A DNA stretch of 51,878 nucleotides, taken from Patescibacteria group bacterium (GTDB taxonomy: Bacteria > Patescibacteriota > Patescibacteriia > Magasanikbacterales > GWA2-37-8). The notes beneath the pieces are model-generated. The model saw only the letters and a list, made by a program, of their open reading frames with translations, made no database searches and was not told the origin of the DNA. The translations under genes and the position numbers were made by a program. The stretch is taken from positions 1-51,878 of the forward strand of contig JBBTQE010000019.1 of assembly GCA_038065775.1 (NCBI GenBank), given 5' to 3'. The stretch's first letter is position 1. The number at the start of each line of letters is the position of its first letter. This document shows positions 7,863-43,738 of the stretch, one piece after another.

Positions 7863-8558
7863 ATGGCGAACGATTCAGTAATTCCGGAACATATTGGCAT
7901 CATTTTAGATGGCAACCGCAGGTGGGCAAAAGAGCGCGGGTTGCCCACTTTTTTTGGGCACAGGAAAGGGATGGAAAACGCCAAACGAATTATTTTGTAT
8001 GCCCAAAAAAGTGGGGTGAAGATAGTTACAATGTTTGCTTTTTCAACTGAAAATTGGTCGCGCGCGCCAAAGGAAGTTGGCTATCTGATGAAATTATTTG
8101 AGAATTATTTGGATAAGTATTTGCTGGAATTTAAGAAAAAAGGAGTTCGGCTTGGGCATGTCGGTTCAATGGAAGAGTTGCCGGAGAGTTTGAGCAAGAA
8201 ATTAAAAAAGGCGATTGAGGAGACGAAAAATAACAAAGGGATTATTGCAAATTTGGCGTTGAATTATGGCGGGCGCGACGAGATTAAGCGGATGATTCAA
8301 AAGATAATTTCTATGGGAATAAAGGCGAGCGAGGTTGATTTTGATTTAATCAGCGCGAATTTGGATACGAGTGGTTTGTCAGACCCGGATCTGATCATCC
8401 GCACTTCTGGTGAACAGAGAACTTCCGGTTTTTTGATTTGGCAGGGCGCTTATAGTGAATTATATTTTCCAAAAGTCCACTGGCCTGCTTTTGATGAGAG
8501 AGAATTTGATAAAGCGATTGAGGAGTATGGTAAACGACAAAGGAGGTTTGGGGTATGA
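7863..8558 (+). CDS. uppS: undecaprenyl-diphosphate synthase (cis-prenyltransferase)
   Basis: 231 aa with HIGIILDGNRRWA and RTSGEQRTSGFLIWQ motifs. Confidence 0.9.
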   Translation: MANDSVIPEHIGIILDGNRRWAKERGLPTFFGHRKGMENAKRIILYAQKSGVKIVTMFAFSTENWSRAPKEVGYLMKLFENYLDKYLLEFKKKGVRLGHVGSMEELPESLSKKLKKAIEETKNNKGIIANLALNYGGRDEIKRMIQKIISMGIKASEVDFDLISANLDTSGLSDPDLIIRTSGEQRTSGFLIWQGAYSELYFPKVHWPAFDEREFDKAIEEYGKRQRRFGV

Positions 8559-9373
8559 ATTTTCTAGGAGTCAAAATCAGCGAAGTTGATTTGGAAAAAG
8601 CGCGAGAGAAAGTTCGTGAGTTTTTAGGTTCTTCAAATCAGCATAAAATTTTCACTCCCAACCCGGAAATGATTGTAAAAGCGCAGAAAGATAAATATTT
8701 TCAAGATGTCCTGAATTCCGGCGATTTGAATTTGTGTGATGGAAAAGGGTTGGAAATGTTTACAAAAATTAAACGCATTCCCGGCATTGATTTTATGTTG
8801 GAGGTTTGTAAAATTGCGGCGGAGAAGGGGACGGGTGTTTATTTGTTGGGCTCCGGCAGGGATGAAGTTGTTAAAAAAACCGCAGAGAATTTGCAAAAAC
8901 AATTTCCGGGTTTGAAAATAGTTGGGTATGATAAAGGGCCGGTGATTGAAGAGAATTGTCATTCCGAACACATTCACTGCGTTCAATGTAAACTCCGTGA
9001 GGAATCTCTGTCCAATTCGTTTGGACACGGATCCCTCGTCGGCGCGAGCCTCGCTCGGGATGACACTGTGGCTAAAATAAACGCGTGTAACCCCGACATC
9101 CTCTTCGTCGCCTTTGGCATGGGCAAGCAGGAAAAATGGATTCATGAAAATTTATCAAAAATGCCAAGCGTAAAAATCGCGATGGGAGTCGGCGGTTCGT
9201 TTGATTATATCTCCGGCAAGGCAAAACGCGCCCCTTTATTTTTACGCAAAGTTGGGTTAGAATGGATGTATCGATTGTTTAAACAGTCGAGCCGTATATG
9301 GCGAATATTAAATGCGACAGTAAGGTTTTGTTATCTGATTATCAAAAATTATATTTATGAGAAAAAAATTTAG
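8555..9373 (+). CDS. WecB/TagA/CpsF-family glycosyltransferase carrying an in-frame palindromic-element insertion
   Basis: 272 aa. The ATGA overlap with uppS suggests translational coupling. Family-typical segments include FTPNPEMIV, DILFVAFGMGKQEKWI and MGVGGSFDY. About 37 extra residues (CHSEHIHCVQCKLREESLSNSFGHGSLVGASLARDDT) are encoded by repeat copy 8957-9066. Confidence 0.75.
   Translation: MNFLGVKISEVDLEKAREKVREFLGSSNQHKIFTPNPEMIVKAQKDKYFQDVLNSGDLNLCDGKGLEMFTKIKRIPGIDFMLEVCKIAAEKGTGVYLLGSGRDEVVKKTAENLQKQFPGLKIVGYDKGPVIEENCHSEHIHCVQCKLREESLSNSFGHGSLVGASLARDDTVAKINACNPDILFVAFGMGKQEKWIHENLSKMPSVKIAMGVGGSFDYISGKAKRAPLFLRKVGLEWMYRLFKQSSRIWRILNATVRFCYLIIKNYIYEKKI
8957..9066. repeat. palindromic element, long variant, inside the tagA-like CDS
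   Basis: tgtcattccgaac...gctcgggatgaca, with terminal inverted repeats TGTCATTCCGAAC and GCTCGGGATGACA. Its 3' half matches copy 29516-29628 at 36 of 37 positions when both are read on the coding strand. Confidence 0.85.
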
Positions 9374-15706: not shown

Positions 15707-16672
15707 CTACTCTTTGTCAAAAAGAGGATGAAAATCATGGTGCGTTTTCTCCGCGAACTTATCAGAGGCGTGCACGTAGCGGGTCGTCGTGTCTAGCGAC
15801 TCGTGGCCCAACAGAATCTGGATTGCCGCAGGGTTAGCGCCATTTTCGGCTAAAAAAGTAGCAAACCCATGGCGCAGAGTATGGGCGCTGATGGGAATAT
15901 TTATATCGAGCAACTCCCGATATTTTTTTATTTTAAATTGCAAGTAATTGGTTGATATTTTTTTATTTTTTTCCTGATTATTTCTGCCCCGGTAGGGGAC
16001 AAATAACATATCAGACGTGCTATTTCGTTTGGCGAGGTAATTTTTTAAGTGCGCAAGCGCTCGAGGCGTCAAATATACAAAACGTTGTTTTTTTCCTTTT
16101 CCAAGCACATAAATTCGTCCAGTTTGGTCAATTTGGTTCACTTTTAGCGATAAAAGTTCGGAAATACGCATGCCAGTGGCGAATAATGTTTCAAGCATCG
16201 CTCTGTTGCGTAGAGCGACACGTTCCTCGCCTTCATATTTTATCGGAGCTTCAATAATTTTTATAATTTCTTCAAATTCAGGCACTTGCGCGTGTTTTTT
16301 AATGTTTTTAATTAATTTTATCGCGGCAGGGGATATGGGGGTGGTATGATCCATATCTTCCATAAACTTTAAATAAGACCGCAAGGCCGAAAGCATGCGG
16401 TTTATAGAGTAACTGCTTAGCTTTTTATTAGGTCTATTGGTTGATATGGCCGTTCTACGGTCAGAAGAGCCCAAATAAGCCTTGTAGCGCAATAAATCCG
16501 TCTTATCTATCTTGTTAAATACTTTTTTTATATCTTCGTTTAAAAAATATTCAAAAATTTTTAAATCGCGCTCGTAGTTGTAAGCAGTTTCTTCAGAGAA
16601 GTTATTTGCTTTAAGATTTAAAATAAAATCATCTAGATATGGAAGTTGCGGTAAATTGTTTAAAGTAGTCAT
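15707..16672 (-). CDS. tyrosine site-specific recombinase (XerC/XerD family)
   Basis: The C-terminal catalytic signature is HTLRHGFATFL...LLGHESLDTTTRYVH, plus ATGMRISEL. The start is taken at MTTLNNLPQLPY (16672), because the longer ORF overlaps the upstream ftsQ-like gene. Confidence 0.85.
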   Translation of the reverse strand: MTTLNNLPQLPYLDDFILNLKANNFSEETAYNYERDLKIFEYFLNEDIKKVFNKIDKTDLLRYKAYLGSSDRRTAISTNRPNKKLSSYSINRMLSALRSYLKFMEDMDHTTPISPAAIKLIKNIKKHAQVPEFEEIIKIIEAPIKYEGEERVALRNRAMLETLFATGMRISELLSLKVNQIDQTGRIYVLGKGKKQRFVYLTPRALAHLKNYLAKRNSTSDMLFVPYRGRNNQEKNKKISTNYLQFKIKKYRELLDINIPISAHTLRHGFATFLAENGANPAAIQILLGHESLDTTTRYVHASDKFAEKTHHDFHPLFDKE

Positions 16673-16760
16673 ATTGAACTGAGTGTAAGAGATATTATAC
16701 TCAATTATATAATACTCTTGAAATGCGGTCAAAGTACTTTTCCACAGCCCTCCCCTTCTA

Positions 16761-17672
16761 TTACTTCCAATAAATTCTGCTGTCAAGACGTAAATCAATA
16801 TACTCGGTTGGTTTCACCGTTTTTAAAATATTTTTAAGATTATTAATTTGAAAATCTACATCAATAATATCCGGATTGAAATAAATATTCCATGTTTTTG
16901 CCGTATCTATCATTACGCCCGCGGAGGGATTGTCTATTTTAAAATATTCAGCCGTGCCAATCCCCTTTTTTAAAAGCGCGGTGTGCCATGCAATTATTGA
17001 TTCTACTATATTTTGTGGAAGTAAACCAAGCTGATTGTTTTCAATTTTTATAATTTGAGTGTCATAAACTATGGGGTAATTTCCATAGAGAGCCTGAATT
17101 TTTTTAAAATTTGGCGTGTAAGTTGAGCTTGCGCCAGAAACATGCGATGTGCTGCTGGTCGCATTTTTAAGAATTGAAAAATTAGAGGGGGTGCCTGACA
17201 CGGAACTGGCTTCACCCAGATATTTAATTAGACCGCCCCCAGTATCTAGCAAATAATATTTTGAATTGTTTTCATAGATCACGGAAGAAACTTTTTCTGT
17301 AATATTTACAGTAATTTTATTTGGGAATAGTTTGAATACCGCTACGTCTTCAAGCGTAAATTTATTTTTGAGTGATGCCTGAATTTTTTCTGGATTAACT
17401 AAAAAATAATTGTCAAACGGAATATAATAGTATTTTGAAAAAAGAAATTGTTCATAAATAAAATTTTTAACCTCCACCTCGCTTAAATTATTTATCCCAA
17501 CAATCTTTACACTTGTAATTCTAAAATACGGAAGGTACATCGCCAGAAGAAGCCACGCGAGAACGGTTGCAAAAAATAAAATTAAAATCAATCTCGCCTT
17601 TGATGTTTTTATTTTTTTAGGCGCGTGAGGTTTATATTTTTGAAAGCTTAATTCAGATCGAAGATGTCTCAT
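16761..17672 (-). CDS. FtsQ/DivIB-like cell division protein (TM helix plus POTRA)
   Basis: 303 aa. A single N-terminal TM helix (LILILFFATVLAWLLLAMYL) is followed by a POTRA-like FRITSVKIVGINNLSEVEVKNFI segment. Confidence 0.6.
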   Translation of the reverse strand: MRHLRSELSFQKYKPHAPKKIKTSKARLILILFFATVLAWLLLAMYLPYFRITSVKIVGINNLSEVEVKNFIYEQFLFSKYYYIPFDNYFLVNPEKIQASLKNKFTLEDVAVFKLFPNKITVNITEKVSSVIYENNSKYYLLDTGGGLIKYLGEASSVSGTPSNFSILKNATSSTSHVSGASSTYTPNFKKIQALYGNYPIVYDTQIIKIENNQLGLLPQNIVESIIAWHTALLKKGIGTAEYFKIDNPSAGVMIDTAKTWNIYFNPDIIDVDFQINNLKNILKTVKPTEYIDLRLDSRIYWK

Positions 17673-28694: not shown

Positions 28695-31691
28695 TCATAC
28701 CTTGTACTGGCAAATATTTTTAAAATCGCAATATTTACACGTGTGCTGGCCCGGGGTTGCGGAAAAATTTCCGGAATTGATTTGCTCGATTGTTTTAATC
28801 AGTTTCTCTTGAAGTTTAGAAATTTCTTTTTCATTTCCTAAAAACGAAACGCGCTTGTTGTCGTTTAAATAGTAGAATGTCAATTTTCCCGGCGCGCCAA
28901 TTTCTCTGTATTCTGGAAGTTGCCGCAGGGCGATTTGGTAAATTATCAGCTGGTCCTTATCTTCGCCCTCAACTTTTTCTTTTGCCTTTCCTGTTTTATA
29001 GTCAATAATTTCAAACGAACCGTCCGGCAAACGGTCAATTCTATCTATCTGACCGCGCACCAAATAATTCCCAATTTTAATTTTAAACGACGACTCCAGC
29101 CCAACCGGAATTGTCCAATTATTTTCTTCGGATTTATAAAACTCGCGTAAAATATCCTTGCCAAGCTGGTAATATTCTTCGCGTTGGAGCTTTGTATTAT
29201 ACCAATCTTCAATCCATGATTCTTCATAAAAAACAAGTAATTTATCCAACGAAGGCGCTTTGGTGGTTTTTATCGGCGCGTTCTTTCGCGGCGCGTCAAA
29301 AAGCGAGTCCTGTCTCACGTCGTTTAACTCGCATAGCCGTTCATAAAATTTATGCATCGCGCCATGCACACTTTTTCCAAAACTAAAACTCGCGCTTCCT
29401 TTGGTTGGTATTTTCAAAATGTGCGCCAGCTTGTATTGGTATGGGCATGTGCTGTAAGATTTGATTTGTGAAAATGAAAAAACGTCTGGGTGCTGATAGA
29501 TGAAGTCGGCCTTGTTGTCATCCCGAGCGAGGATCGCGCCGACGAGGGATCCCTGTCCATTTATCGATTGAGATAGGGTTTCCTCCGGAGCTTGCACTGA
29601 ACGAAGTGAATGTGTCGTCGGAATGACAGAAAACCCCAGCTCGGCTAAAAACCTGCTGATCTTTTTCGCCCTTGCCCCTCCGTAATCATCGGCGCTTAAC
29701 AAAAACAATTTTTCTTTCGCGCGCGTTATGGCCACATAGAACAAACGCCGTTCTTCCTGGCAGTGGCTATCCCCTTCCGAGAGCTGTTCTTTAATCAATT
29801 CGGCCGGTATTTCAATTCCCTCGCCGCGTCGTCTGGCAGGGAACCTATCCTCAACCAAATTAACGACAAAAACATACTTAAACTCCAGCCCTTTTGCCTT
29901 GTGGACAGTAATAATGTTAACGGAATCAGGCGTATCTGATGGCTGATAAAGCGCGCCCATATCTCCTGATTCAAGCACGTAATGAAAGTGTTCTAGAAAG
30001 CCGACAATGTTTGGGTTTGATGTTTCTGACTCATACTCATTTACATACTCAAAAAATTCTTTTAACTGATAAATTTGGCGAATCATTTCGCGATTCCCTT
30101 TTTGCTCTTCTTTTGTTAATAATTCCAACAACCCTGTTTGTTCTAAAAAGTTATACAGAATTACAGTCGGTTTTTCAGTTTTTGATTTTTGTAAGCCGAT
30201 TTGAATAATGTTTAATATTGCGGAGGTGTTTTTTTGGCCATTTTCGCTGACTCCAAATTCGCCGGTCCGCTTTAACGCTTCATAAAACGACACACTTTTC
30301 CGTTTGGCGTTATATGACAATTTCTGCATGTCTTGCTCGTTAATTTTCCAAACCGGCATGCAGAGCAATCGGTATATTGATTGTGAATCGTAAAAATTTT
30401 CCAAGACCCTAAAATAGTTTATACAGTCCAAAACAATTGGCTGACGGTAAAGTCCGGAAGCCGCCAAAAATTCGTATGGCACGCCGGCTTTTTCCAGCGC
30501 CGCCATAAATGGTTCGCTGTGGCTATTGGCCCTAACCAAAATTGCAAAATCATCCCAAACAACATTGGAATCGTTTTCTTTAGCCCGGATTATTTCTCTC
30601 ACAACCGTTTTTACTTCTTCGTCAATAGTTGAACACATAATGTGAACAACACTTTTTTCGTCAGAAGATGGAACCTTCGATGTAAACTCGGGATGATTAG
30701 CGCGGCTAATCAATTTTTTATCTAGTTTTAATTTTACCTCCAAGCGATCGGGATTATTATTTTGGATTAACTTGTAGGCAGTGTCTAAAATCTCTTGATT
30801 GGATCTATAATTTTCATTTAACACGATTTCTTTTGCCTTGGGAAAGTCATCCTTAAAACGCAAAATGTTTGAAACCGACGCGCCACGAAACGCGTATATG
30901 CTCTGGTCGTCATCTCCCACCACCGTTAGATTTGGGTTTTCGCCGGCCAGCAATTGCACCAATTGATACTGCGCCCAATTTACATCCTGGAACTCATCAA
31001 TAAGAATGTATTTGAATCTTTTTCTCAACTTGTCGGTAATATTTTCGCGGGTTTGCAAAAGTTTTAATGTATAAAAAATCAGGTCGCCAAAATCCAGCGC
31101 CTCATTTTCCAAAAGAAGTTGGTTGTATGTGTGGTACGCATTGGCTACTTCTGATAAGCGAGTTTTTTCGTCGGTATTATCTTTATTCAGCTTGTTATCT
31201 TCCGCTAAATTCAAGTAGTCGTCCGGCGTTATCAATTCATCTTTGCATTTGTTAAAATGAGTAATCAATTCATGGATGTGCCCGGAGGGATTCCCAAGCG
31301 GACTATAATAATCCAAATTAAATTTGTCCAAATTTTTCCTCATTAACATCCACGCCTCGGATTCGGTTGCAAGTTTAAACTTATTGCTTAAACCAATGTC
31401 CAGCGCGTATTTTTCCAAAATTTTCTGGCAGAATGAATGAAATGTTGAAATTTGTAAATCAACATACCCGATCTCAATCAGATTATCCACTCGGGTAAGC
31501 ATTTCATCGGCCGCTTTTTCGGTAAAGGTTAAAGCCAAAACCTCCTCGGGAGTAGCGAGTTTTTGTTCAATTAAATAGGCGATTTTTTGCGTTATAACCG
31601 TTGTTTTACCGGTCCCGGCGCCGGCAACGATGATAAGCGGGCCATTGTTGTATTCCACGGCCTCTTTCTGGGCTTTGTTAAGAGTTTGCAT
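28695..31691 (-). CDS. UvrD/PcrA-type SF1 helicase fused to a C-terminal PD-(D/E)xK Cas4/AddB-like Fe-S nuclease
   Basis: 998 aa. Helicase motifs include VAGAGTGKTTV (Walker A), ILIDEFQDVN, VGDDDQSIYAFRGA and TVHKAKGLEF. The C-terminal nuclease has CPYQYKL...GQIDRID...IIDYKTGK...QLIIYQ...CKYCDFKNIC. The linker contains repeat copy 29516-29628. Confidence 0.85.
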   Translation of the reverse strand: MQTLNKAQKEAVEYNNGPLIIVAGAGTGKTTVITQKIAYLIEQKLATPEEVLALTFTEKAADEMLTRVDNLIEIGYVDLQISTFHSFCQKILEKYALDIGLSNKFKLATESEAWMLMRKNLDKFNLDYYSPLGNPSGHIHELITHFNKCKDELITPDDYLNLAEDNKLNKDNTDEKTRLSEVANAYHTYNQLLLENEALDFGDLIFYTLKLLQTRENITDKLRKRFKYILIDEFQDVNWAQYQLVQLLAGENPNLTVVGDDDQSIYAFRGASVSNILRFKDDFPKAKEIVLNENYRSNQEILDTAYKLIQNNNPDRLEVKLKLDKKLISRANHPEFTSKVPSSDEKSVVHIMCSTIDEEVKTVVREIIRAKENDSNVVWDDFAILVRANSHSEPFMAALEKAGVPYEFLAASGLYRQPIVLDCINYFRVLENFYDSQSIYRLLCMPVWKINEQDMQKLSYNAKRKSVSFYEALKRTGEFGVSENGQKNTSAILNIIQIGLQKSKTEKPTVILYNFLEQTGLLELLTKEEQKGNREMIRQIYQLKEFFEYVNEYESETSNPNIVGFLEHFHYVLESGDMGALYQPSDTPDSVNIITVHKAKGLEFKYVFVVNLVEDRFPARRRGEGIEIPAELIKEQLSEGDSHCQEERRLFYVAITRAKEKLFLLSADDYGGARAKKISRFLAELGFSVIPTTHSLRSVQAPEETLSQSINGQGSLVGAILARDDNKADFIYQHPDVFSFSQIKSYSTCPYQYKLAHILKIPTKGSASFSFGKSVHGAMHKFYERLCELNDVRQDSLFDAPRKNAPIKTTKAPSLDKLLVFYEESWIEDWYNTKLQREEYYQLGKDILREFYKSEENNWTIPVGLESSFKIKIGNYLVRGQIDRIDRLPDGSFEIIDYKTGKAKEKVEGEDKDQLIIYQIALRQLPEYREIGAPGKLTFYYLNDNKRVSFLGNEKEISKLQEKLIKTIEQINSGNFSATPGQHTCKYCDFKNICQYKV
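29516..29628. repeat. palindromic element, long variant, inside the helicase-nuclease CDS
   Basis: tgtcatcccgagcgagg...tcgtcggaatgaca. On the minus strand it is translated as VIPTTHSLRSVQAPEETLSQSINGQGSLVGAILARDD. Confidence 0.85.
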
Positions 31692-35496: not shown

Positions 35497-36873
<1,377 letters not shown>

Positions 36874-36889
36874 TTAATTATTTTTTAGC

Positions 36890-36966
36890 TGTCATTCCGA
36901 ACGCAGTGAGGAATCTCTGTCCAATTGGCCAACCGACAGAGATCCTTCGCTTCGCTCAGGATGACA
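36890..36966. repeat. palindromic element (atpD|atpG intergenic)
   Basis: tgtcattccgaacgcagtgaggaatctctgtcc-aattggccaacc-gacagagatccttcgcttcgctcaggatgaca. Confidence 0.9.
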
Positions 36967-36980
36967 AATTGTAATATGAA

Positions 36981-37934
36981 TTATTCCAATGCCGCGGCGC
37001 CGCCTGCTATTTCCGCAATTTCTTGCGTAATGCCTGCTTGCCTGGCTTTATTAAAATTCAAATTTAATTCTTTGATCATATCTTCAGCCGCGTCGCTCGC
37101 GCTCCTCATCGCCACCATTCTGGCGCTGTGTTCGCTGGCGGACGACTCCAACATCGCCTGATAAATTTGCATCTCAACCAGACGCGGTAAAATTATTTTT
37201 AAAACATCCAGTTTGTTTGGTTCAAAAAGATAATTGCCTAATTCAATCTCCGTTTTTTGTTCGTGAGATTTGCTTACCTCTTCAATTTCATTTAACATCT
37301 TTTCAAGATCAACTTCTGAAATAGGCAAAACCTGTCTTAATTTCGCGATTTGCGCGATTGTGGATTTAAAATCCGTGTATGCGACGATAACTTTGTCGTA
37401 GACCTTGTTTTCATAATCATTAACGACCATTCTTCCGATCGGCAAGGCATCATTCATGTTAGGGGTATCAGACAAATTTGTAAATGATGCGATTAAATTA
37501 TACCCCATTTTTTTCGCAAAATCCGCGCCTTTTTTTCCGATGCCAATTACATCAACTTCAATTTTATCGCTTGGCGCGACTACTCTTCCACTAACTCTTT
37601 GTCTGCTGATATTTTTTGGATCTTTTAATTGCTCGGATGTTTTTCTGATGATGTTTGAATTAAAACTTCCGCACAATCCCCTGTTTGATGTTATCATGAT
37701 TACCAAAACTTTTTTTACCTGTCTGGCTTCAAGCAACGGGATTTGCATTTTTTCTCCTTGCGAAAGATGAACAAGCAAATCCCAAGCAAGCGTTGCGTAA
37801 TTTCGAGTATCCAAAGCAGCGCTGACGGCTTTTCTCATTTTTGCCGCCGCGACCATTTCCATCGCTTTCGTAATCTTTCGCGTGCTTCCGACGGATTTTA
37901 TTCTTCGTTTGATTGCTTTGGTGTTTACGGCCAT
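36981..37934 (-). CDS. atpG: F1 ATP synthase gamma subunit
   Basis: 317 aa. The N-terminus IKRRIKSVGSTRKITKAMEMVAAAKMRKA and the C-terminus ITQEIAEIAGGAAAL are gamma-subunit signatures. Confidence 0.9.
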   Translation of the reverse strand: MAVNTKAIKRRIKSVGSTRKITKAMEMVAAAKMRKAVSAALDTRNYATLAWDLLVHLSQGEKMQIPLLEARQVKKVLVIMITSNRGLCGSFNSNIIRKTSEQLKDPKNISRQRVSGRVVAPSDKIEVDVIGIGKKGADFAKKMGYNLIASFTNLSDTPNMNDALPIGRMVVNDYENKVYDKVIVAYTDFKSTIAQIAKLRQVLPISEVDLEKMLNEIEEVSKSHEQKTEIELGNYLFEPNKLDVLKIILPRLVEMQIYQAMLESSASEHSARMVAMRSASDAAEDMIKELNLNFNKARQAGITQEIAEIAGGAAALE

Positions 37935-37941
37935 ATAATTC

Positions 37942-38024
37942 TGTCATCCTGAACGCAGTGAAGGATCTCTGTCCATATTGTTTTGACGAACAAGACAGAG
38001 ATTCTTCGTATGCTCAGAATGACA
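37942..38024. repeat. palindromic element (atpG|atpA intergenic)
   Basis: tgtcatcctgaacgcagtgaaggatctctgtcc-atattgttttgacgaaca-agacagagattcttcgtatgctcagaatgaca. Confidence 0.9.
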
Positions 38025-38036
38025 ACTGATAATAAA

Positions 38037-39524
38037 CTACTTCTTAAACTCCTCGCAAGCCGACTTTAATTCCGCTTCAATTTTTTCGTCCCACTCGCCT
38101 GCGGAAATTTTATTTAACAGCTGTCTTTTGCCCTTGCGCATAAAATCCGCGAACTTTTTTTCAGCGACCGGAATATCTTTTACCGCAACGCTGTCAAAAA
38201 ACCCATTGTTCGCCGCATAAATAACAGCAACTTGATCTTCAACCGCAACCGGTTGGTACTGTGGCTGTTTCAAAAGCTCTGTAATGCGTTGACCGCGGTC
38301 AATCTGTTTCTTTGTTTCCGGATCCAAATCGCTGGCAAACTGCGCAAACGCTTCCAGTTCTCTAAATTGCGCCATTGCCAATTTCAATTTGCCTGCAACT
38401 TTTTTCATTGGTTTAATTTGAGCGGCTCCGCCAACGCGTGACACAGAAATACCGACATTCAAAGCAGGACGGATGCCCCGGTAGAACAAGTCGGTTTCCA
38501 AAAAAATCTGGCCATCGGTAATGGAAATCACGTTTGTCGGGATGTACGCTGTCACATCGCTTGCCTGTGTTTCGATTATAGGCAAAGCGGTGATAGATCC
38601 GCCCCCGGATTCTTCGTTTCTGCGGCAAGCGCGTTCCAATAATCTTGAATGTAAATAGAAAACATCGCCTGGGTATGCCTCACGGCCAGGTGGTCTGCGG
38701 AGCAAAAGCGAAATCTCGCGGTATGCCCATGCCTGTTTGGACAAATCGTCATAAACGCATAAAACATCTTTGCCCTGATCCATAAAATACTCGGCCATAG
38801 CAACACCGGCGTAAGGGGCGATGTATGCCAACGAGGCCGGTTGTGACGCGCCTGCGACGACAACAATCGTGTAATCCATAGCGCCCGCTTCTTTCAGTTT
38901 GGCGACGATACGCGCAACCTTAGATTCTTTTTGACCAATGGCAACATAAACACAAATCATGTCCTTGCCTTTTTGGTTGATAATAGTATCAATCGCAACC
39001 GCGGTTTTTCCGGTTTGGCGATCGCCGATAATAAGCTCTCGCTGTCCGCGTCCGATTGGAATCATAGCGTCAATCGCTTTAATACCTGTTTGCACCGGTT
39101 GTGTTACCGGCTGACGTTTCATTACGCCCGGAGCAATTTTTTCAATCGGATAAAACCTTGAGGATTTAATATCTTTTCCACCATCAATTGCTTGACCCAG
39201 AGGATTAACAACACGCCCAATCAATTCTTCTCCGACCGGCACAGACAAAATTCTGCCCGTTCTTTTTACAGTATCCCCTTCTTTAATATGTTTATATTCT
39301 CCAAGCAACACGCAACCTACGGTTTCTTCCTCAAGATTTAGCGCCAAACCAAAAGTTCCGCCTTCAAACTCAATCATTTCGCTGGCTTGAATTTTTGTTA
39401 AACCGGAAAGACGCGCGATGCCGTCGCCTACTTCTATAACTTTACCGGTTTCTTCTTTTTCAACTTCTTTTTGAAAAAGAGAAATATTTTTTTTCAATTC
39501 TTCAACAATGGAATTGGTTGACAT
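38037..39524 (-). CDS. atpA: F1 ATP synthase alpha subunit
   Basis: 495 aa with GDRQTGKTA (Walker A) and ITDGQIFLE. Confidence 0.95.
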
Positions 39525-39530
39525 ATCTAT

Positions 39531-39914
39531 TTAAATTAATTGATTTTTTAATCTTGATAATTGTTTTTTTAAACTCGCGTCGTAAACGATATTATCAACT
39601 TTTATTCTGATTCCGCCAATCAAATTCGGATTCGTTGTTTCTTTTATCTCCGCGTTGTCTCCGAATGTTTTTTTAATTTTGCTTAATGTTATTTTGCTTA
39701 ACTCGCCGGCTGACTCAACTTCAACCTCTTTAATGCCATCCTGATTTTTTGAGTACCTTTCAAATTCATCTATTATATATTCAATTTTCTTTAACTTTCT
39801 ATCTTTTAAAAGCAATGACAAAAATTGTTTCGCGACTTCATCCAAATGATTCTTTGGCGCGTCTTTTGACACCTCATACAACGCTTTTGCGTATTGTTTG
39901 TTGCTTTTTTTCAT
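39531..39914 (-). CDS. atpH: F1 ATP synthase delta (OSCP) subunit, short form
   Basis: 127 aa. The call rests on its position between atpF and atpA, the YAKALYEV N-terminus and the LIGGIRIKVDNIVYDASL C-terminus. It is shorter than typical delta subunits. Confidence 0.7.
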   Translation of the reverse strand: MKKSNKQYAKALYEVSKDAPKNHLDEVAKQFLSLLLKDRKLKKIEYIIDEFERYSKNQDGIKEVEVESAGELSKITLSKIKKTFGDNAEIKETTNPNLIGGIRIKVDNIVYDASLKKQLSRLKNQLI

Positions 39915-39919
39915 ACCAA

Positions 39920-40504
39920 TTAGATCTTCATGCTTTCTACCGCTTCTTCAATAATTTTTTTATCTTTTGTTGAATCCAATTTGCTGGAAAGAATTTTTTC
40001 CGTGGCCATGACTACTAAATTCGCGGCCTGCTCCCTTACTTCGTTAATTGATTCATCGCGTTCGGCTTTGATATTTTTTCTTGCCTGCTCCACAAGCAAT
40101 TCTATGTCTTCCTTGGCTTTCACCTTCATATCATCGCCCAATTTTACGGCTTCCTGTTGGGCTTTCTCAGTTATTTTATTCGCTTCAACTTTTGCGTCAT
40201 CAACCCTTTCTTGAAATTTTCTTTCACTCATCATTAAATTTGTTTCAACTTTTCTGGAATTTTCAATACTGGCATCAATCATTTTTTGCCTTTCGGCCAT
40301 CTTTTTTGTAAGCGGTTTAAGAATTAAAAACCATAAAATCAAAGCAACCGCGATAAAATTGATTAACTGAAAAATAAATAGTGTGCCGTTAATGCCGAGG
40401 GAGGCCAGCACTCCGCCATCAGCTGCGGCTTCGGTGGCATGCCCTGCGCCCTCTACGGCTTTTTTAATAGGTTCTGACGCGTATACAGTTTCAATAAAAT
40501 TCAT
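39920..40504 (-). CDS. atpF: Fo ATP synthase b subunit
   Basis: 194 aa. A single TM helix (LFIFQLINFIAVALILWFLIL) is followed by a long charged helix. Confidence 0.8.
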   Translation of the reverse strand: MNFIETVYASEPIKKAVEGAGHATEAAADGGVLASLGINGTLFIFQLINFIAVALILWFLILKPLTKKMAERQKMIDASIENSRKVETNLMMSERKFQERVDDAKVEANKITEKAQQEAVKLGDDMKVKAKEDIELLVEQARKNIKAERDESINEVREQAANLVVMATEKILSSKLDSTKDKKIIEEAVESMKI

Positions 40505-40515
40505 ATATTTTATTT

Positions 40516-40598
40516 TGTCATTCTGAGTGAAACGAAGAATCTCTCTCTACTGGTTCTGATAATACAGACAGATATCCTTCATTACATTCAGGATGACA
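40516..40598. repeat. palindromic element (atpF|atpE intergenic)
   Basis: tgtcattctgagtgaaacgaagaatctctctc-tactggttctgataataca-gacagatatccttcattacattcaggatgaca. Confidence 0.85.
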
Positions 40599-40647
40599 TT
40601 TTAAATAAGTCAATTCCATTGGGCTCTTATGAACCCAATGAGTTGAA

Positions 40648-40869
40648 TTACTTCAATGTGAAAACAACGACCAACGCATAAATAGCGATGGCTTCGGCAA
40701 ACGCGGCGCCGAGCAACATCGGAACGAATAATTTGTCCGATGCCTCCGGGTTGCGACCGATGGCTTGCATGGCTTTGGCAACAAGATTGCCGATAGCCAA
40801 GGCAGGCCCAAAGCCGCCGATGGCCATTGTCAAACCCTTTACCAACGCGACCACTGATTCGTGCTCCAT
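40648..40869 (-). CDS. atpE: Fo ATP synthase c subunit
   Basis: 73 aa forming a two-helix hairpin, with the polar loop GRNPE and the conserved carboxylate in AFAEAIAIYALVV. Confidence 0.9.
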   Translation of the reverse strand: MEHESVVALVKGLTMAIGGFGPALAIGNLVAKAMQAIGRNPEASDKLFVPMLLGAAFAEAIAIYALVVVFTLK

Positions 40870-40956
40870 ACGATTTTTACCTTTCAGACACCATCCGTTC
40901 GAGGGAATAATATATTTAACCTCGCAAATGGCATCTTTAAAAATTAATCGACCTAA

Positions 40957-41778
40957 TTAATGTGTTAAAGTCGGCTCTGCGCGCGTTTTATGGCTGTCTT
41001 TTTCTTCGTGGCCATGCGGCGCCGTGGACATTATGGTTAAATAAACCAATGTTAACATTGTAAACACGCTGGCCTGAATCAATCCAACCAAAACCTCCAG
41101 CATCATAAACGGCGCAGGCACCAAAAGCGCGGCGATACTGCTGATTACGGAAATTAAAACTTCGCCGGCAAAAATATTTCCAAACAACCTAAGCGAAAGA
41201 GACAAGATTTTTGCAATTTCGCTGATGATTTCTATGAGTCCTACGGCCAATTCAACTACGGCGGTAAAAATCGCAACCGGACCTTTTGTTAAACTTTTAA
41301 AAAACGTCCCGATTTGAATAAATTTGTTTAGATGAGTAAACACGCCTACGGTTATAAAACCAAAAACATGGGACGAGAGCACGGCAACGACCGCCATTGC
41401 CGCCGTAAGGTTTAAATCGGTGTTGGCGGGGCGAAGCAACATGCTCTGGCCAAGCTTAATACTTCCGGTTCCCGGCAATAGGCCGAGCCAGTTGGAGAGT
41501 AAAATAAAAAAGAAGACGGATCCGACAATCGGCAAAAAGCGCATTGTCTTTTTTCTGTCTCCGGTCACTCTGTCAAAATATCCAAGAAGTTTTTCTAAAA
41601 AAAATTCCATGAAGTTTTGCATTTTTCCGGGTTTGACGCTCAATCTCTTGCGGATAGTCAACCCTAGCACTAGGAAAATAATAATCGCCAGCCACGTATT
41701 AATAATAGTATTGGTAATTGGCAGTTTTCCAATATGAAATAGGGTTTCTGGCGCTAATGTTGGTATGTGAAATTCCAT
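40957..41778 (-). CDS. atpB: Fo ATP synthase a subunit
   Basis: It contains LSLRLFGNIFAGE with the essential Arg. The start is taken at MEFHIPTLAPE (41778). The longer track start at 41793 (MTQKT) lies inside repeat copy 41788-41852. Confidence 0.85.
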   Translation of the reverse strand: MEFHIPTLAPETLFHIGKLPITNTIINTWLAIIIFLVLGLTIRKRLSVKPGKMQNFMEFFLEKLLGYFDRVTGDRKKTMRFLPIVGSVFFFILLSNWLGLLPGTGSIKLGQSMLLRPANTDLNLTAAMAVVAVLSSHVFGFITVGVFTHLNKFIQIGTFFKSLTKGPVAIFTAVVELAVGLIEIISEIAKILSLSLRLFGNIFAGEVLISVISSIAALLVPAPFMMLEVLVGLIQASVFTMLTLVYLTIMSTAPHGHEEKDSHKTRAEPTLTH

Positions 41779-41787
41779 AGTTTTCTG

Positions 41788-41852
41788 TGTCATCCCGAAC
41801 TTGTTTCGGGATCTACTGTAATTTCAGATGCTGAAACAAGTTCAGCATGACA
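41788..41852. repeat. palindromic element, short variant (atpB|atpI-like intergenic)
   Basis: tgtcatcccgaacttgtttcgggatct-actgtaatttc-agatgctgaaacaagttcagcatgaca. Confidence 0.85.
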
Positions 41853-41860
41853 ATTAAATT

Positions 41861-42118
41861 TTACTTACCCAACTTCTTATACTCTTCTCCGTAATTTTTT
41901 GCTTTTTTGTGGATTATTTTTACAGAAATAAGCGCGGCAAGAACAAATCCTAAAATCGTGAATAGCGGACCGCGGCGATATTTTTCATCCAAATATTGGC
42001 CGGCCAGCACAAACAAAATTACCGGAATTGCGATTGATGCGCCAAAATCCCCCATTATCTTGAATGCAAACAAGTAATATTCTCTACTCTTTGATTTTTG
42101 CGGGATTTTTTCATCCAT
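41861..42118 (-). CDS. AtpZ/AtpI-like small membrane protein (first gene of the atp operon)
   Basis: The start is taken at MDEKIPQK (42118), because the longer ORF would cover the promoter. The product has two TM helices (FGASIAIPVILFVLAGQYLD..., LFTILGFVLAALISV), as in the ATPase_gene1 family. Confidence 0.6.
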   Translation of the reverse strand: MDEKIPQKSKSREYYLFAFKIMGDFGASIAIPVILFVLAGQYLDEKYRRGPLFTILGFVLAALISVKIIHKKAKNYGEEYKKLGK

Positions 42119-42143
42119 ATTACAATCATTAAACGACGCCAAT

Positions 42144-42172
42144 ATTTTACAAAAAAAACCCGGTAAAGTCAA
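42144..42172 (-). promoter_or_regulatory. sigma-70-type promoter of the atp operon
   Basis: On the minus strand: TTGACT (42172-42167), a 17-nt spacer, then TAAAAT (42149-42144), about 25 nt upstream of the atpI-like ATG. Confidence 0.6.
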
Positions 42173-42217
42173 GGCTTTTTTAAATTCACTATAATTGAAT
42201 ACCGAAATATCTGAATA

Positions 42218-43138
42218 TTAAGATATTTTGAACAATTTCTTCGCATTTTCTGTTGTTTTGTTTAAGACCGCTTCTTCGGGAACGCCTTTTATCTCCGCAA
42301 TCTTTTTCGCCACTTCTTCCACCATCCATGGCTCGCAACGCTGGCCTCGATAGGCCTGCGGAGCCAAATATGGCGCGTCTGTTTCCACCAACATCCGCTC
42401 AAGCGGACACTTTTCAACAACTTCAAGCAAGTCCAATTGTGTTTGCGGATCGGTTTTTTTGGGCGGGAATGTGATAACGCCGGTAAAACCAAGATATAAT
42501 CCCAAATCCAAATACTGCTCGGCAATTTCCCAATTACTTGTATAGCAGTGAATAACGCCGCGGATGGTAGATTTTGTCATCCCGAACGCATGTGAAGGAT
42601 TTCTGTCGGTTGTATTTTTGGACAGAGATTCCTCGTCGCTTTGCTCGCTCGGAATGACAAGATACCGCAACAACCCAATCATTTCTTCATGCGCTTCTCT
42701 AACGTGTATGACTAATGGCAAGCCAAGTTCTTTGGCTAAATTATACTGGGCTAGGAATATCTCCTTTTGTTTTTTCAAAACTTCCTCCCCGCCAACTCCT
42801 TTCGGCAGATGAAAAAAATCCAACCCACACTCCCCTATCGCGATTACTTTTTTATTCTTCGCCAGCTTTTTGTAATATTCATAATCAAATTCTTCTTCGC
42901 GCGACTCAAACTTTGCTTCCGCTTCGTCAACGCGCGATTTAAAAAGATGGATCGGATGCAATCCGACCGTGGCATAAATATTATCGTATTTTCCCGCGTA
43001 TTCTACCGCCCGGGCGCTCGTGTCTCTTTGCGATCCGACCGCGTTCAAGATTACATTTTTTTCAACGCAACGTTTAATTACTTCGTCCGCGTCGTCTTTA
43101 TACGCGCTAAATTGTATATGGCAGTGGGTGTCTAACAT
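42218..43138 (-). CDS. TatD-family metal-dependent hydrolase carrying an in-frame palindromic-element insertion
   Basis: 306 aa with MLDTHCHIQF, IGECGLDF, LVIHVREA, VIHCYTS and ETDAPYL. About 29 extra residues (VIPSEQSDEESLSKNTTDRNPSHAFGMTK) lie between the HVREA and HCYT strands and are encoded by repeat copy 42575-42659. Confidence 0.85.
   Translation of the reverse strand: MLDTHCHIQFSAYKDDADEVIKRCVEKNVILNAVGSQRDTSARAVEYAGKYDNIYATVGLHPIHLFKSRVDEAEAKFESREEEFDYEYYKKLAKNKKVIAIGECGLDFFHLPKGVGGEEVLKKQKEIFLAQYNLAKELGLPLVIHVREAHEEMIGLLRYLVIPSEQSDEESLSKNTTDRNPSHAFGMTKSTIRGVIHCYTSNWEIAEQYLDLGLYLGFTGVITFPPKKTDPQTQLDLLEVVEKCPLERMLVETDAPYLAPQAYRGQRCEPWMVEEVAKKIAEIKGVPEEAVLNKTTENAKKLFKIS
42575..42659. 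repeat. palindromic element inside the tatD CDS
   Basis: tgtcatcccgaacgcatgtgaaggatttctgtcgg-ttgtattttt-ggacagagattcctcgtcgctttgctcgctcggaatgaca. Confidence 0.9.
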
Positions 43139-43690: not shown

Positions 43691-43738
43691 GATTGCTTCG
43701 CGGAATTTATCCCGCGCAGAGGCGGGGCTCGCAATGAC
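43691..43738. repeat. half or degenerate copy of the palindromic element (single arm)
   Basis: Read on the minus strand it is tgtcATTGCgagccccgcctctgcgcgggataaattccgcgaaGCAATct. This keeps the TGTC terminus and the ATNNC...GNNAT arm hairpin, but there is no second arm. Confidence 0.5.

Follow-up and report, generated by a model that had tools for sequence, protein, structure and literature searches.

A REP-like hairpin dimer as the probable source of a helicase-nuclease linker in a Patescibacteria group bacterium

How does a 113-bp palindrome come to lie, open and in frame, inside a gene for a DNA helicase, and what has become of it there? The question is posed by positions 29516-29628 (minus strand) of contig JBBTQE010000019.1 from a Patescibacteria group bacterium, a stretch of 51,878 nucleotides that was analysed as a whole and is called the window here. 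The host gene (28695-31691, minus strand) encodes a 998-residue fusion of a UvrD-type helicase and a PD-(D/E)XK (AddB/Cas4-like) nuclease. Based on comparisons with orthologous genes and a syntenic relative, combined with analyses of related copies in other genomes, we propose that the palindrome is very probably a non-autonomous dimer of hairpins resembling repetitive extragenic palindromic (REP) sequences, which inserted in the DNA for the linker between helicase and nuclease and was kept as an open and tolerated addition.

The element, its site and its insertion

The coordinates, sequence and minus-strand translation of the element had been given in a first-pass annotation made from the letters alone, and all three proved correct. 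On the minus strand the element runs TGTCATTCCGA...TCGGGATGACA, and its translation in the open reading frame (ORF), VIPTTHSLRSVQAPEETLSQSINGQGSLVGAILARDD, supplies 37 residues, 689-725 of the 998. In Pfam, residues 4-284 match UvrD-helicase, 289-665 UvrD_C and 738-995 PDDEXK_1 (a Cas_Cas4 match is weaker), and the element therefore falls within the gap between the helicase and nuclease domains, the latter of which holds four invariant cysteines (C749, C985, C988 and C994). An AlphaFold2 model built on a 70-sequence alignment (mean per-residue confidence, pLDDT, 82.2; predicted template modelling score, pTM, 0.78) leaves residues 692-726 at pLDDT below 50 and without secondary structure, with a well-predicted domain on either side, and the 37-residue insert is predicted to be a disordered linker. 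Across an alignment of 120 helicase orthologues, in which the relatives are Candidatus Magasanikbacteria and other Patescibacteria, the interdomain linker is hypervariable, spanning 33-65 residues between sequence anchors. The earlier description of the site as a tolerant interdomain linker agrees with this variability, with the low pLDDT and with the independent palindromes found there in other lineages (below).

Orthologue and synteny comparisons show that, on sequence grounds, the 113 bp are an insertion, as had been claimed from the start. The sequence they encode is present in 0 of the 119 other helicase orthologues, and the closest, P0002-P0005 (68-70% identity), show nothing of the element in their linker, which is rich in K/E and about 26 residues long. 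The contig that encodes P0002 (L124) likewise lacks the insert and follows the gene order of the window: CvpA, TatD, atpI-B-E-F-H-A-G-D-C, an ABC transporter, the helicase, DciA, and MreB onwards. No GTCATYCY motif occurs in the 23 kb of L124, its TatD protein is uninserted (278 residues; that of the window is longer by a clean 28), and its atpA-atpG and atpG-atpD gaps measure 6 and 15 nt, compared with 102 and 116 nt in the window. Hence, six window copies of the family to which the element belongs are missing from the syntenic relative. In a strain variant on an 85.5-kb contig the helicase insert is unchanged, and an insert in a WecG gene differs by one substitution; the same helicase protein is encoded on four contigs from two sources.

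The family was delimited by scanning the window for the terminal motif GTCATYCYGA with at most one mismatch. There are 21 such sites where 7.5 +/- 2.4 are expected, a count attained in 0 of 100 shuffles. Fourteen of them combine into seven inverted pairs of 65-113 bp with the form TGTCATYCYGA...TCRGRATGACA, all of which fold into long hairpins. The elements have a GC content of 54%, compared with 39.7% for the window, and a TGTC tag is found on both arms of the helicase copy and in every window copy. Three copies are intragenic, in the genes for a WecG/TagA glycosyltransferase (8555-9373), the helicase and a TatD hydrolase (42218-43138), the same three hosts as first annotated, and the other four occupy gaps between cistrons of the F-type ATP synthase operon.

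The helicase copy represents the long form of the family, a dimer of two tagged hairpins with expanded loops in both arms. In the orientation of the mRNA, the 5' arm (29578-29628, minus strand) consists of a TGTC tag, the stem ATTCC..GGAA(A) and an expanded loop, CGACACATTCACTTCGTTCAGTGCAAGCTCCG; alignment with a copy on contig L135 and folding delimit a variable centre and spacer at 29552-29577; and the 3' arm (29516-29551), read on the plus strand, has a TGTC tag, the stem ATCCC/GGGAT and the loop GAGCGAGGATCGCGCCGACGA. Measured from GA to GA, the two loops are 36 and 21 nt long. Part of the central stem has decayed, and one change in it is compensated (T-A of the L135 copy is C-G here).

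The linker has received such elements more than once. At the same place in their DNA, three orthologues (P0079, P0119 and P0080) have unrelated palindromes of the form GTCAT...ATGAC (96, 107 and 103 bp), which shows independent colonisation of the linker in other lineages. About one in ten helicase orthologues has an enlarged linker, and about half of these have recognisable repeat signatures of the VI or CH type. The long orthologue P0077 (1344 residues) has precomputed Pfam hits to PF01079 and PF14890, which we take to be Hint/intein-type families and which would suggest an intein in that protein. The other host genes present a similar picture. In 35 of 107 TatD orthologues the loop of the window copy holds an insert of 15 residues or more; of these inserts, 21 are of the VIP/VIA type ending in MT or ND, two are of the CHP type and the rest come from other repeat families, and many WecG orthologues have a repeat-derived insert in the corresponding loop, mostly in the CH frame. 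Inserts at one protein site tend to share a frame, GTC-ATY in TatD and mostly TGT-CAT in WecG. Intragenic copies of Patescibacteria at large (the window; contigs L131, L135, L139 and L142; TatD and WecG orthologues) are nearly always read in the GTC-ATY frame (VIP/VIA), with the WecG loop as the exception, although in the family at large TGT-CAT is open nearly as frequently (39% against 45%). The WecG and TatD loops (e.g. in P0123, P0243, P0277 and P0321) also hold inserts of repeats without GTCAT, with the peptides QNPTLYPSPYRGGS...PPIRGRTEEGV and SPPFQGGxRGG; to judge from these peptides, they are evidently further in-frame repeats of Patescibacteria.

Beyond the window, a scan with the pattern GTCATYCYGA-N45-75-TCRGRATGAC, taking one genome per species, returned at least 120 loci. 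The matches listed (80 record titles) include at least some ten phyla, among them Acidobacteriota, Bacteroidota, Chloroflexota, Firmicutes, Proteobacteria, Planctomycetota, Verrucomicrobiota, Nitrospirota, Gemmatimonadota, Omnitrophota and Patescibacteria, and the family is present in 112 viral contigs. Several copies each are found on the IMG/VR viral contigs L188, L213 and L197, and at the end of L188 five dimers form a tandem array (8545-8980; period 87, 88% matches).

What is conserved across these loci is the arm, e.g. TGTC-ATCCT-GA-GCGAAGC-GA-AGGAT-C, and the centre varies by locus. The main-family arm has five Watson-Crick pairs, two G·A positions, two further pairs and a loop of 3 nt; its stem, AT(YCY)...(RGR)AT, begins with an A-T and then a T-A pair. 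A perfectly complementary TYYY/RRRA stem closed by GA..GA was found within 267 of 336 arms. In 88 of 168 elements the two arms differ in stem, so that arm-to-arm pairing is imperfect; both arms are still self-complementary in 64 of these 88, in a scan whose pattern required dimers. The commonest inner loops are GCGAAGC, GCGCAGC, GCGTAGC and GCGGAGC, all of which fit GCGNAGC, the consensus of a DNA mini-hairpin with unusual stability (PMC13037366). Of 624 arms, 491 have T and 96 have C in front of GTC, giving the TGTC/CGTC tag, and among 463 arms the stem is followed by a CTC tail in 197 and by a CCA tail in 9. The covariation within arms shows that each arm is, in sequence terms, an independent hairpin. 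Single-arm folding by nearest-neighbour DNA parameters yields about -2.7 kcal/mol (z about -0.9 against shuffles), which is not above shuffles, and the hairpin assignment consequently rests on covariation and on the published failure of nearest-neighbour models for GCGNAGC.

Reading frames, relatives and rival explanations

That no stop codon interrupts the element was earlier attributed either to selection for open copies or to a sequence evolved to be stop-free. The helicase copy is open in one of six frames, its coding frame, and the four intergenic window copies have 2, 2, 1 and 0 open frames; in dinucleotide shuffles of the helicase copy (54% GC) about 1.9 of six frames are open, and its stop-free run is unremarkable by itself. 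Among 312 non-redundant elements, open reads amount to 45% in the GTC-ATY frame, 39% in TGT-CAT and 11% in the third frame, and element length modulo three is flat (117:91:104), with no lean to multiples of three. In a cross-phylum sample, 17 of 162 copies lie within an ORF that continues for 60 codons or more on either side, compared with 55% of random positions, and most copies outside Patescibacteria are intergenic. Given the low open-frame rates, the flat length distribution and the few copies in ORFs, the family is not built for coding and its intragenic copies are survivors. Selection for open copies agrees with the coding frame being the sole open one and with intergenic copies that do no better than shuffles; an element evolved to be stop-free does not agree with the open rates and lengths of the 312 members.

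Where did the copy come from? The second long form of the window (8957-9066, plus strand, 110 bp) is in frame in the WecG/TagA gene and read CHSEH...LARDD, and its resemblance to the helicase copy had been taken for a sign of recent transposition or gene conversion. The resemblance itself is borne out: the 3' arms are identical at 42 of 44 nt (95%), the 5' arms share a 30-nt match at 87%, and both are long forms with the same two loop expansions. A recent origin of one from the other, in either direction, is nevertheless unlikely. Over the whole element 97 of 116 columns are identical with 9 gap columns, or 88% with 17 gap columns, with about 12 mismatches, and because of indels the 5' halves encode different peptides, CHSEHIHCVQCKLREE in the helicase and VIPTTHSLRSVQAPEE in WecG, read in different frames before converging on GSLVGA(S/I)LARDD. 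A long form in a QueA gene on contig L135, from Hainich groundwater, is closer: it equals the helicase copy at 105 of 113 positions (93%; 8 mismatches, 2 gap columns) and is identical to its 5' arm up to GGAGGAA, although this arm lay outside the search pattern. The shared 3' arm occurs exactly in 18 contigs of the metagenome scan, with various partner arms, and the central stem is more decayed in the helicase copy than in the others (folds, alignment). The nearest relative of the helicase copy, as judged by sequence, is thus the L135 QueA copy and not the WecG copy (88%), and of the earlier claim the near-identity of the 3' arms stands, whereas its recent cause is weakened by the closer QueA copy, by the 18 contigs and by the frame-shifting indels.

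The contigs related to these copies hold 26 elements of the same subfamily, of which 10 are intragenic. These represent six independent insertions, all in the GTC-ATY frame, with QueA (two), CysRS, LeuRS, an RluA-type pseudouridine synthase and a FolC-like ligase as hosts. One QueA gene of L135 contains two in-frame elements (at 8377-8487 and 8834-8919), of which one is a short and one a long form, and a third is found in an RluA-type gene of that contig.

About as improbable as the WecG origin, in our judgement, is a co-option of the insert, in which the peptide would be a useful flexible spacer, or the mRNA hairpin would slow ribosomes between the domains and thereby aid co-translational folding. 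The insert lies exactly at the domain boundary and two strains keep it, and as the native linker has shrunk to about 4 residues, it supplies most of the linker length, as do the elements in P0119 and P0080. However, sister copies encode different peptides through frame-shifting indels, and the L135 QueA copy, read in the same frame (VIPTTHSLRSVQAPEESLSQSTNGQRSLVGASLARDD), has four amino acid changes among its 8 nt differences; there is no sign of constraint on the encoded peptide. The insert is moreover predicted to be disordered, most orthologues function without one, and the hairpin of the mRNA strand is decaying (z = -2.0).

Far less probable is that the element is removed or bypassed (as an intron, an intein or by a translational hop), or that two genes were joined by an assembly artefact. 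A strong palindrome within a gene invites such thoughts, and metagenome assemblies can mis-join at repeats. Yet the element is in frame and stop-free in three of three window genes and in six of six independent metagenome cases, which would be needless if it were removed or bypassed, and it has no intron or intein features; an artefact is contradicted by a helicase-nuclease fusion that is conserved in all orthologues, by flanks that both align and by the same protein on four contigs from two sources. A native, vertically inherited linker that merely resembles a repeat is the least credible explanation, since a linker is present in all orthologues (33-65 residues between anchors) but this sequence is in 0 of 119 and absent from the closest relatives and L124, and the same DNA recurs at 93% in the QueA gene elsewhere and at 88% in the window WecG gene; these results already refute it.

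Proposed mechanism and the remaining copies of the window

We propose that the insert arose as follows. The dimer that inserted into the DNA for the flexible linker joining the helicase and nuclease domains would have consisted of two inverted REP-like hairpins whose outer ends carry unpaired tags, TGTC (CGTC-type). The helicase copy would by chance have been stop-free and compatible in length, and the linker would tolerate the added disordered residues, so that the gene stayed functional and the copy was kept; all intragenic copies seen are open, presumably because gene-breaking copies are purged. The element would then be transcribed and translated as part of the protein, and we infer that the insert peptide is made and is functionally near-neutral. 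Once the insert provided spare length, the native linker may have been trimmed to about 4 residues. In element-bearing linkers (the helicase, P0119 and P0080) the native part amounts to about 4-11 residues, compared with 22-26 in relatives, a pattern that suggests deletion of the redundant native linker of the helicase after the insertion; the TatD insertion is by contrast a clean addition of 28 residues. Copying may occur in trans by an enzyme that recognises the single-stranded DNA hairpin and the tag, in the manner of a RAYT or an IS200-type HUH-Y1 transposase. This step, drawn by analogy, is tentative and of low probability, because no candidate gene was found in the window or beside the 120 listed loci and a published lead did not match.

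An all-against-all BLAST of ORFs within 1.5 kb of the 120 listed loci yielded only generic short-chain dehydrogenases, M28 peptidases, response regulators and ABC ATPases as linked genes, and the HUH-Y1 'class 3' lead, with its Solibacter hairpins and CnGA foot (PMC6006769), has published sequences, CCGAGCCGCGACTGTCAAGGAGCGGTTG, that are unrelated to the arms. The sole Pfam/NCBIfam hit on the encoded peptides, to the 'mobility-associated LCxxNW protein' NF033850 (E = 0.008, 16 bits against a cut-off of 40), was dismissed as chance, as the window peptide reads LCxxxNW instead of LCxxNW and the motif is not shared among the elements.

Several points weigh against the insertion of a mobile hairpin dimer as laid out above. 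The helicase copy has neither a target-site duplication nor a clean empty site: no direct repeat flanks any window copy, and when filled intergenic sites of the window are set against empty ones of L124, the spacers are too diverged for edges and define no target-site duplication. The TatD insertion, a clean +84 nt, has a 1-nt T/A ambiguity at its edge. Only about 4 native linker residues flank the helicase insert (relatives have 22-26), and so either the insertion was not a simple one or deletions came after it. The fold of the whole helicase copy in the mRNA strand only modestly beats shuffles, and single-arm hairpins receive weak, non-significant thermodynamic support. The 52-kb window contains no transposase and no RAYT gene, and no recurrent neighbour gene occurs within 1.5 kb in the 120 listed loci. 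Finally, the DNA scans demanded exact termini and the protein database consisted of called ORFs only.

The other window copies are shorter. The TatD gene contains a short form of 85 bp, in frame (42575-42659, minus strand). In the ATP synthase operon, copies are located in the atpD/atpG gap (36890-36966; gap 116 nt against 15 nt in L124), in the atpG/atpA gap (37942-38024; 102 nt against 6 nt), between the atpF gene and the atpE region (40516-40598) and between atpB and atpI (41788-41852), the last with another arm type, an 8-bp stem ATCCCGAA/TTCGGGAT around a 5-nt loop. Positions 36890-42659 thus hold five copies in 6 kb, all absent from L124, where the gaps measure 3-79 nt. Co-transcription of the operon copies is probable, and, like REPs, they may influence mRNA stability. 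The stop codon of MetRS is immediately followed by a solo hairpin arm of a sister family (43691-43738, minus strand), TGTCATTGCGAG...GAAGCAATC, also written TGTCATTGCGAG...CGAAGCAATC, with the stem ATTGC/GCAAT; the same stem type yields VIAS/VIAR...RNDx inserts in many TatD orthologues. A gene for an XerC/D-type tyrosine recombinase (15707-16798, minus strand) is found near 16 kb, where both the orientation of the genes and the GC skew change, and no link to the repeats was seen.

A wider view would be that the TGTC/CGTC mini-hairpin dimers form one still-active family across nearly all bacterial phyla, copied by machinery that recognises single-stranded DNA hairpins; that in Patescibacteria they continue to be a major supplier of new loops and linkers to essential proteins; and that the frames shared at a site reflect targeted integration, or replacement of elements via their shared termini, and not random insertion with purging. 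We regard this as speculative, and as somewhat more doubtful than the enzymatic step above.

Comparison with known systems

The closest described relatives are the CGTC-tagged REPs (Di Nocera, De Gregorio & Rocco 2013, PMC3733652), a superfamily that includes Neisseria dRS3 and Rickettsia RPE-4 and RPE-6. As defined there, these repeats have an unpaired CGTC tag at one hairpin end, often replaced by TGTC (variants TGTC and CCTC), a stem that begins with A-T and then T-A, and a mostly inverted dimeric arrangement in which heterodimers are common, all of which is shared here. Their dimers have spacers of 20-100 bp whose ends are often complementary, a feature likewise seen here. They are described in frame in genes for UvrD/REP helicases, RecBCD, aminoacyl-tRNA synthetases and pseudouridine synthases, and the same text reports no dedicated transposase. 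The insert peptides VIPAQAGIQ and CHSRQSGNP of orthologues look like the peptides given there for CGTC-2 and CGTC-1, and the published VIPAKAGI, CHSRESGNP and RHSELVSGS match inserts of TatD and WecG orthologues and the copy at 41788-41852, whose arm geometry resembles CGTC-2 and whose reading CHPELVSGS resembles RHSELVSGS.

The differences set the main family apart from the four CGTC families as that account describes them. Published stems are perfect over 8-9 bp with loops of 4-5 nt, which only the copy at 41788-41852 fits (8 bp, 5 nt), whereas the main family has a 5-bp stem, tandem G·A brackets and an apex of the GCGNAGC type with 2 bp and 3 nt. The long form adds loop expansions of 17-32 nt, and in the helicase copy the GA-to-GA stretches between the stem halves, brackets included, are 21 and 36 nt. 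The published consensus of the short, unpaired 3' tail is CCA, while the tail here is mostly CTC (197 of 463, against 9 with CCA). The five phyla named in the published text do not include Patescibacteria, and far more phyla are represented among the matches listed here.

With REPIN/RAYT systems (Bertels & Rainey 2011, PMC3116915; TnpA-REP, PMC6006769) the elements share two inverted hairpins that combine into a larger one, a short conserved tag at the foot, and a non-autonomous, many-copy existence in each genome. Their tag is GT[AG]G, however, and not TGTC/CGTC; a cognate single-copy RAYT gene flanked by repeats, as known there, is missing from the window and from the 120 listed loci; three of the seven window copies are intragenic; and REPIN/RAYT systems are lineage-specific, whereas the arm consensus here is common across phyla. 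Bacterial MITEs (miniature transposable elements with inverted repeats, such as Correia/NEMIS, ERIC and RUP) are likewise small, non-coding and multi-copy with inverted termini, and form RNA hairpins that are often co-transcribed in operons, with occasional in-frame fusions. They differ in that here no target-site duplication was found, nor any parent insertion sequence whose ends match, and since the arms covary as hairpins, recognition would be of a structure rather than of a double-stranded terminal repeat. Rfam has no gathering-score match in the window and none at E <= 1 in 36800-42750, which contains five copies; the canonical dimer has no BLAST match among annotated plasmids; and full-text literature searches for the exact arm sequences, or for Patescibacteria with MITE or RPE, retrieved nothing specific.

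These comparisons bear on how the family spreads and how it should be annotated. The covariation within arms and the GCGNAGC loops suggest that tagged REPs lacking a transposase are recognised as single-stranded DNA hairpins, and with so wide a distribution the enzyme could be sought by phylogenetic profiling. Annotators who meet peptides like VIPxE..., CHPE... and ...LRMT or ...QNDx within conserved enzymes should take them as derived from repeats and not as domains. The frequency of such inserts in essential proteins of Patescibacteria, with about one third of TatD orthologues affected in a single loop, is of moderate interest in itself.

In its habit the helicase insert agrees with the Rickettsia palindromic elements (RPE), whose in-frame insertion is reviewed in PMC10969869, summarising Ogata et al. 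(2000, 2002). According to that review, these are palindromes of some 100-150 bp that occur in frame within housekeeping genes unrelated to one another, their peptides are placed where the fold tolerates them, and their hosts have small, reduced genomes; here, in-frame palindromes are found in functional genes in three cases in the window and in six independent metagenome genes. The host phylum is different, and the likeness drawn here is one of in-frame habit. RPE-1 is reported to encode a conserved peptide, whereas sister copies here are read in different frames, and RPE-6 and RPE-4, equated in the literature with CGTC-1 and CGTC-4, belong to families that differ from the arms of the helicase copy. 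The helicase insert is a further instance of what the Rickettsia palindromic elements show, now in another host phylum, and not a new kind. The in-frame colonisation of housekeeping genes by REP-like dimers, previously best known from Rickettsia, thereby extends to Patescibacteria, another group with small, reduced genomes.

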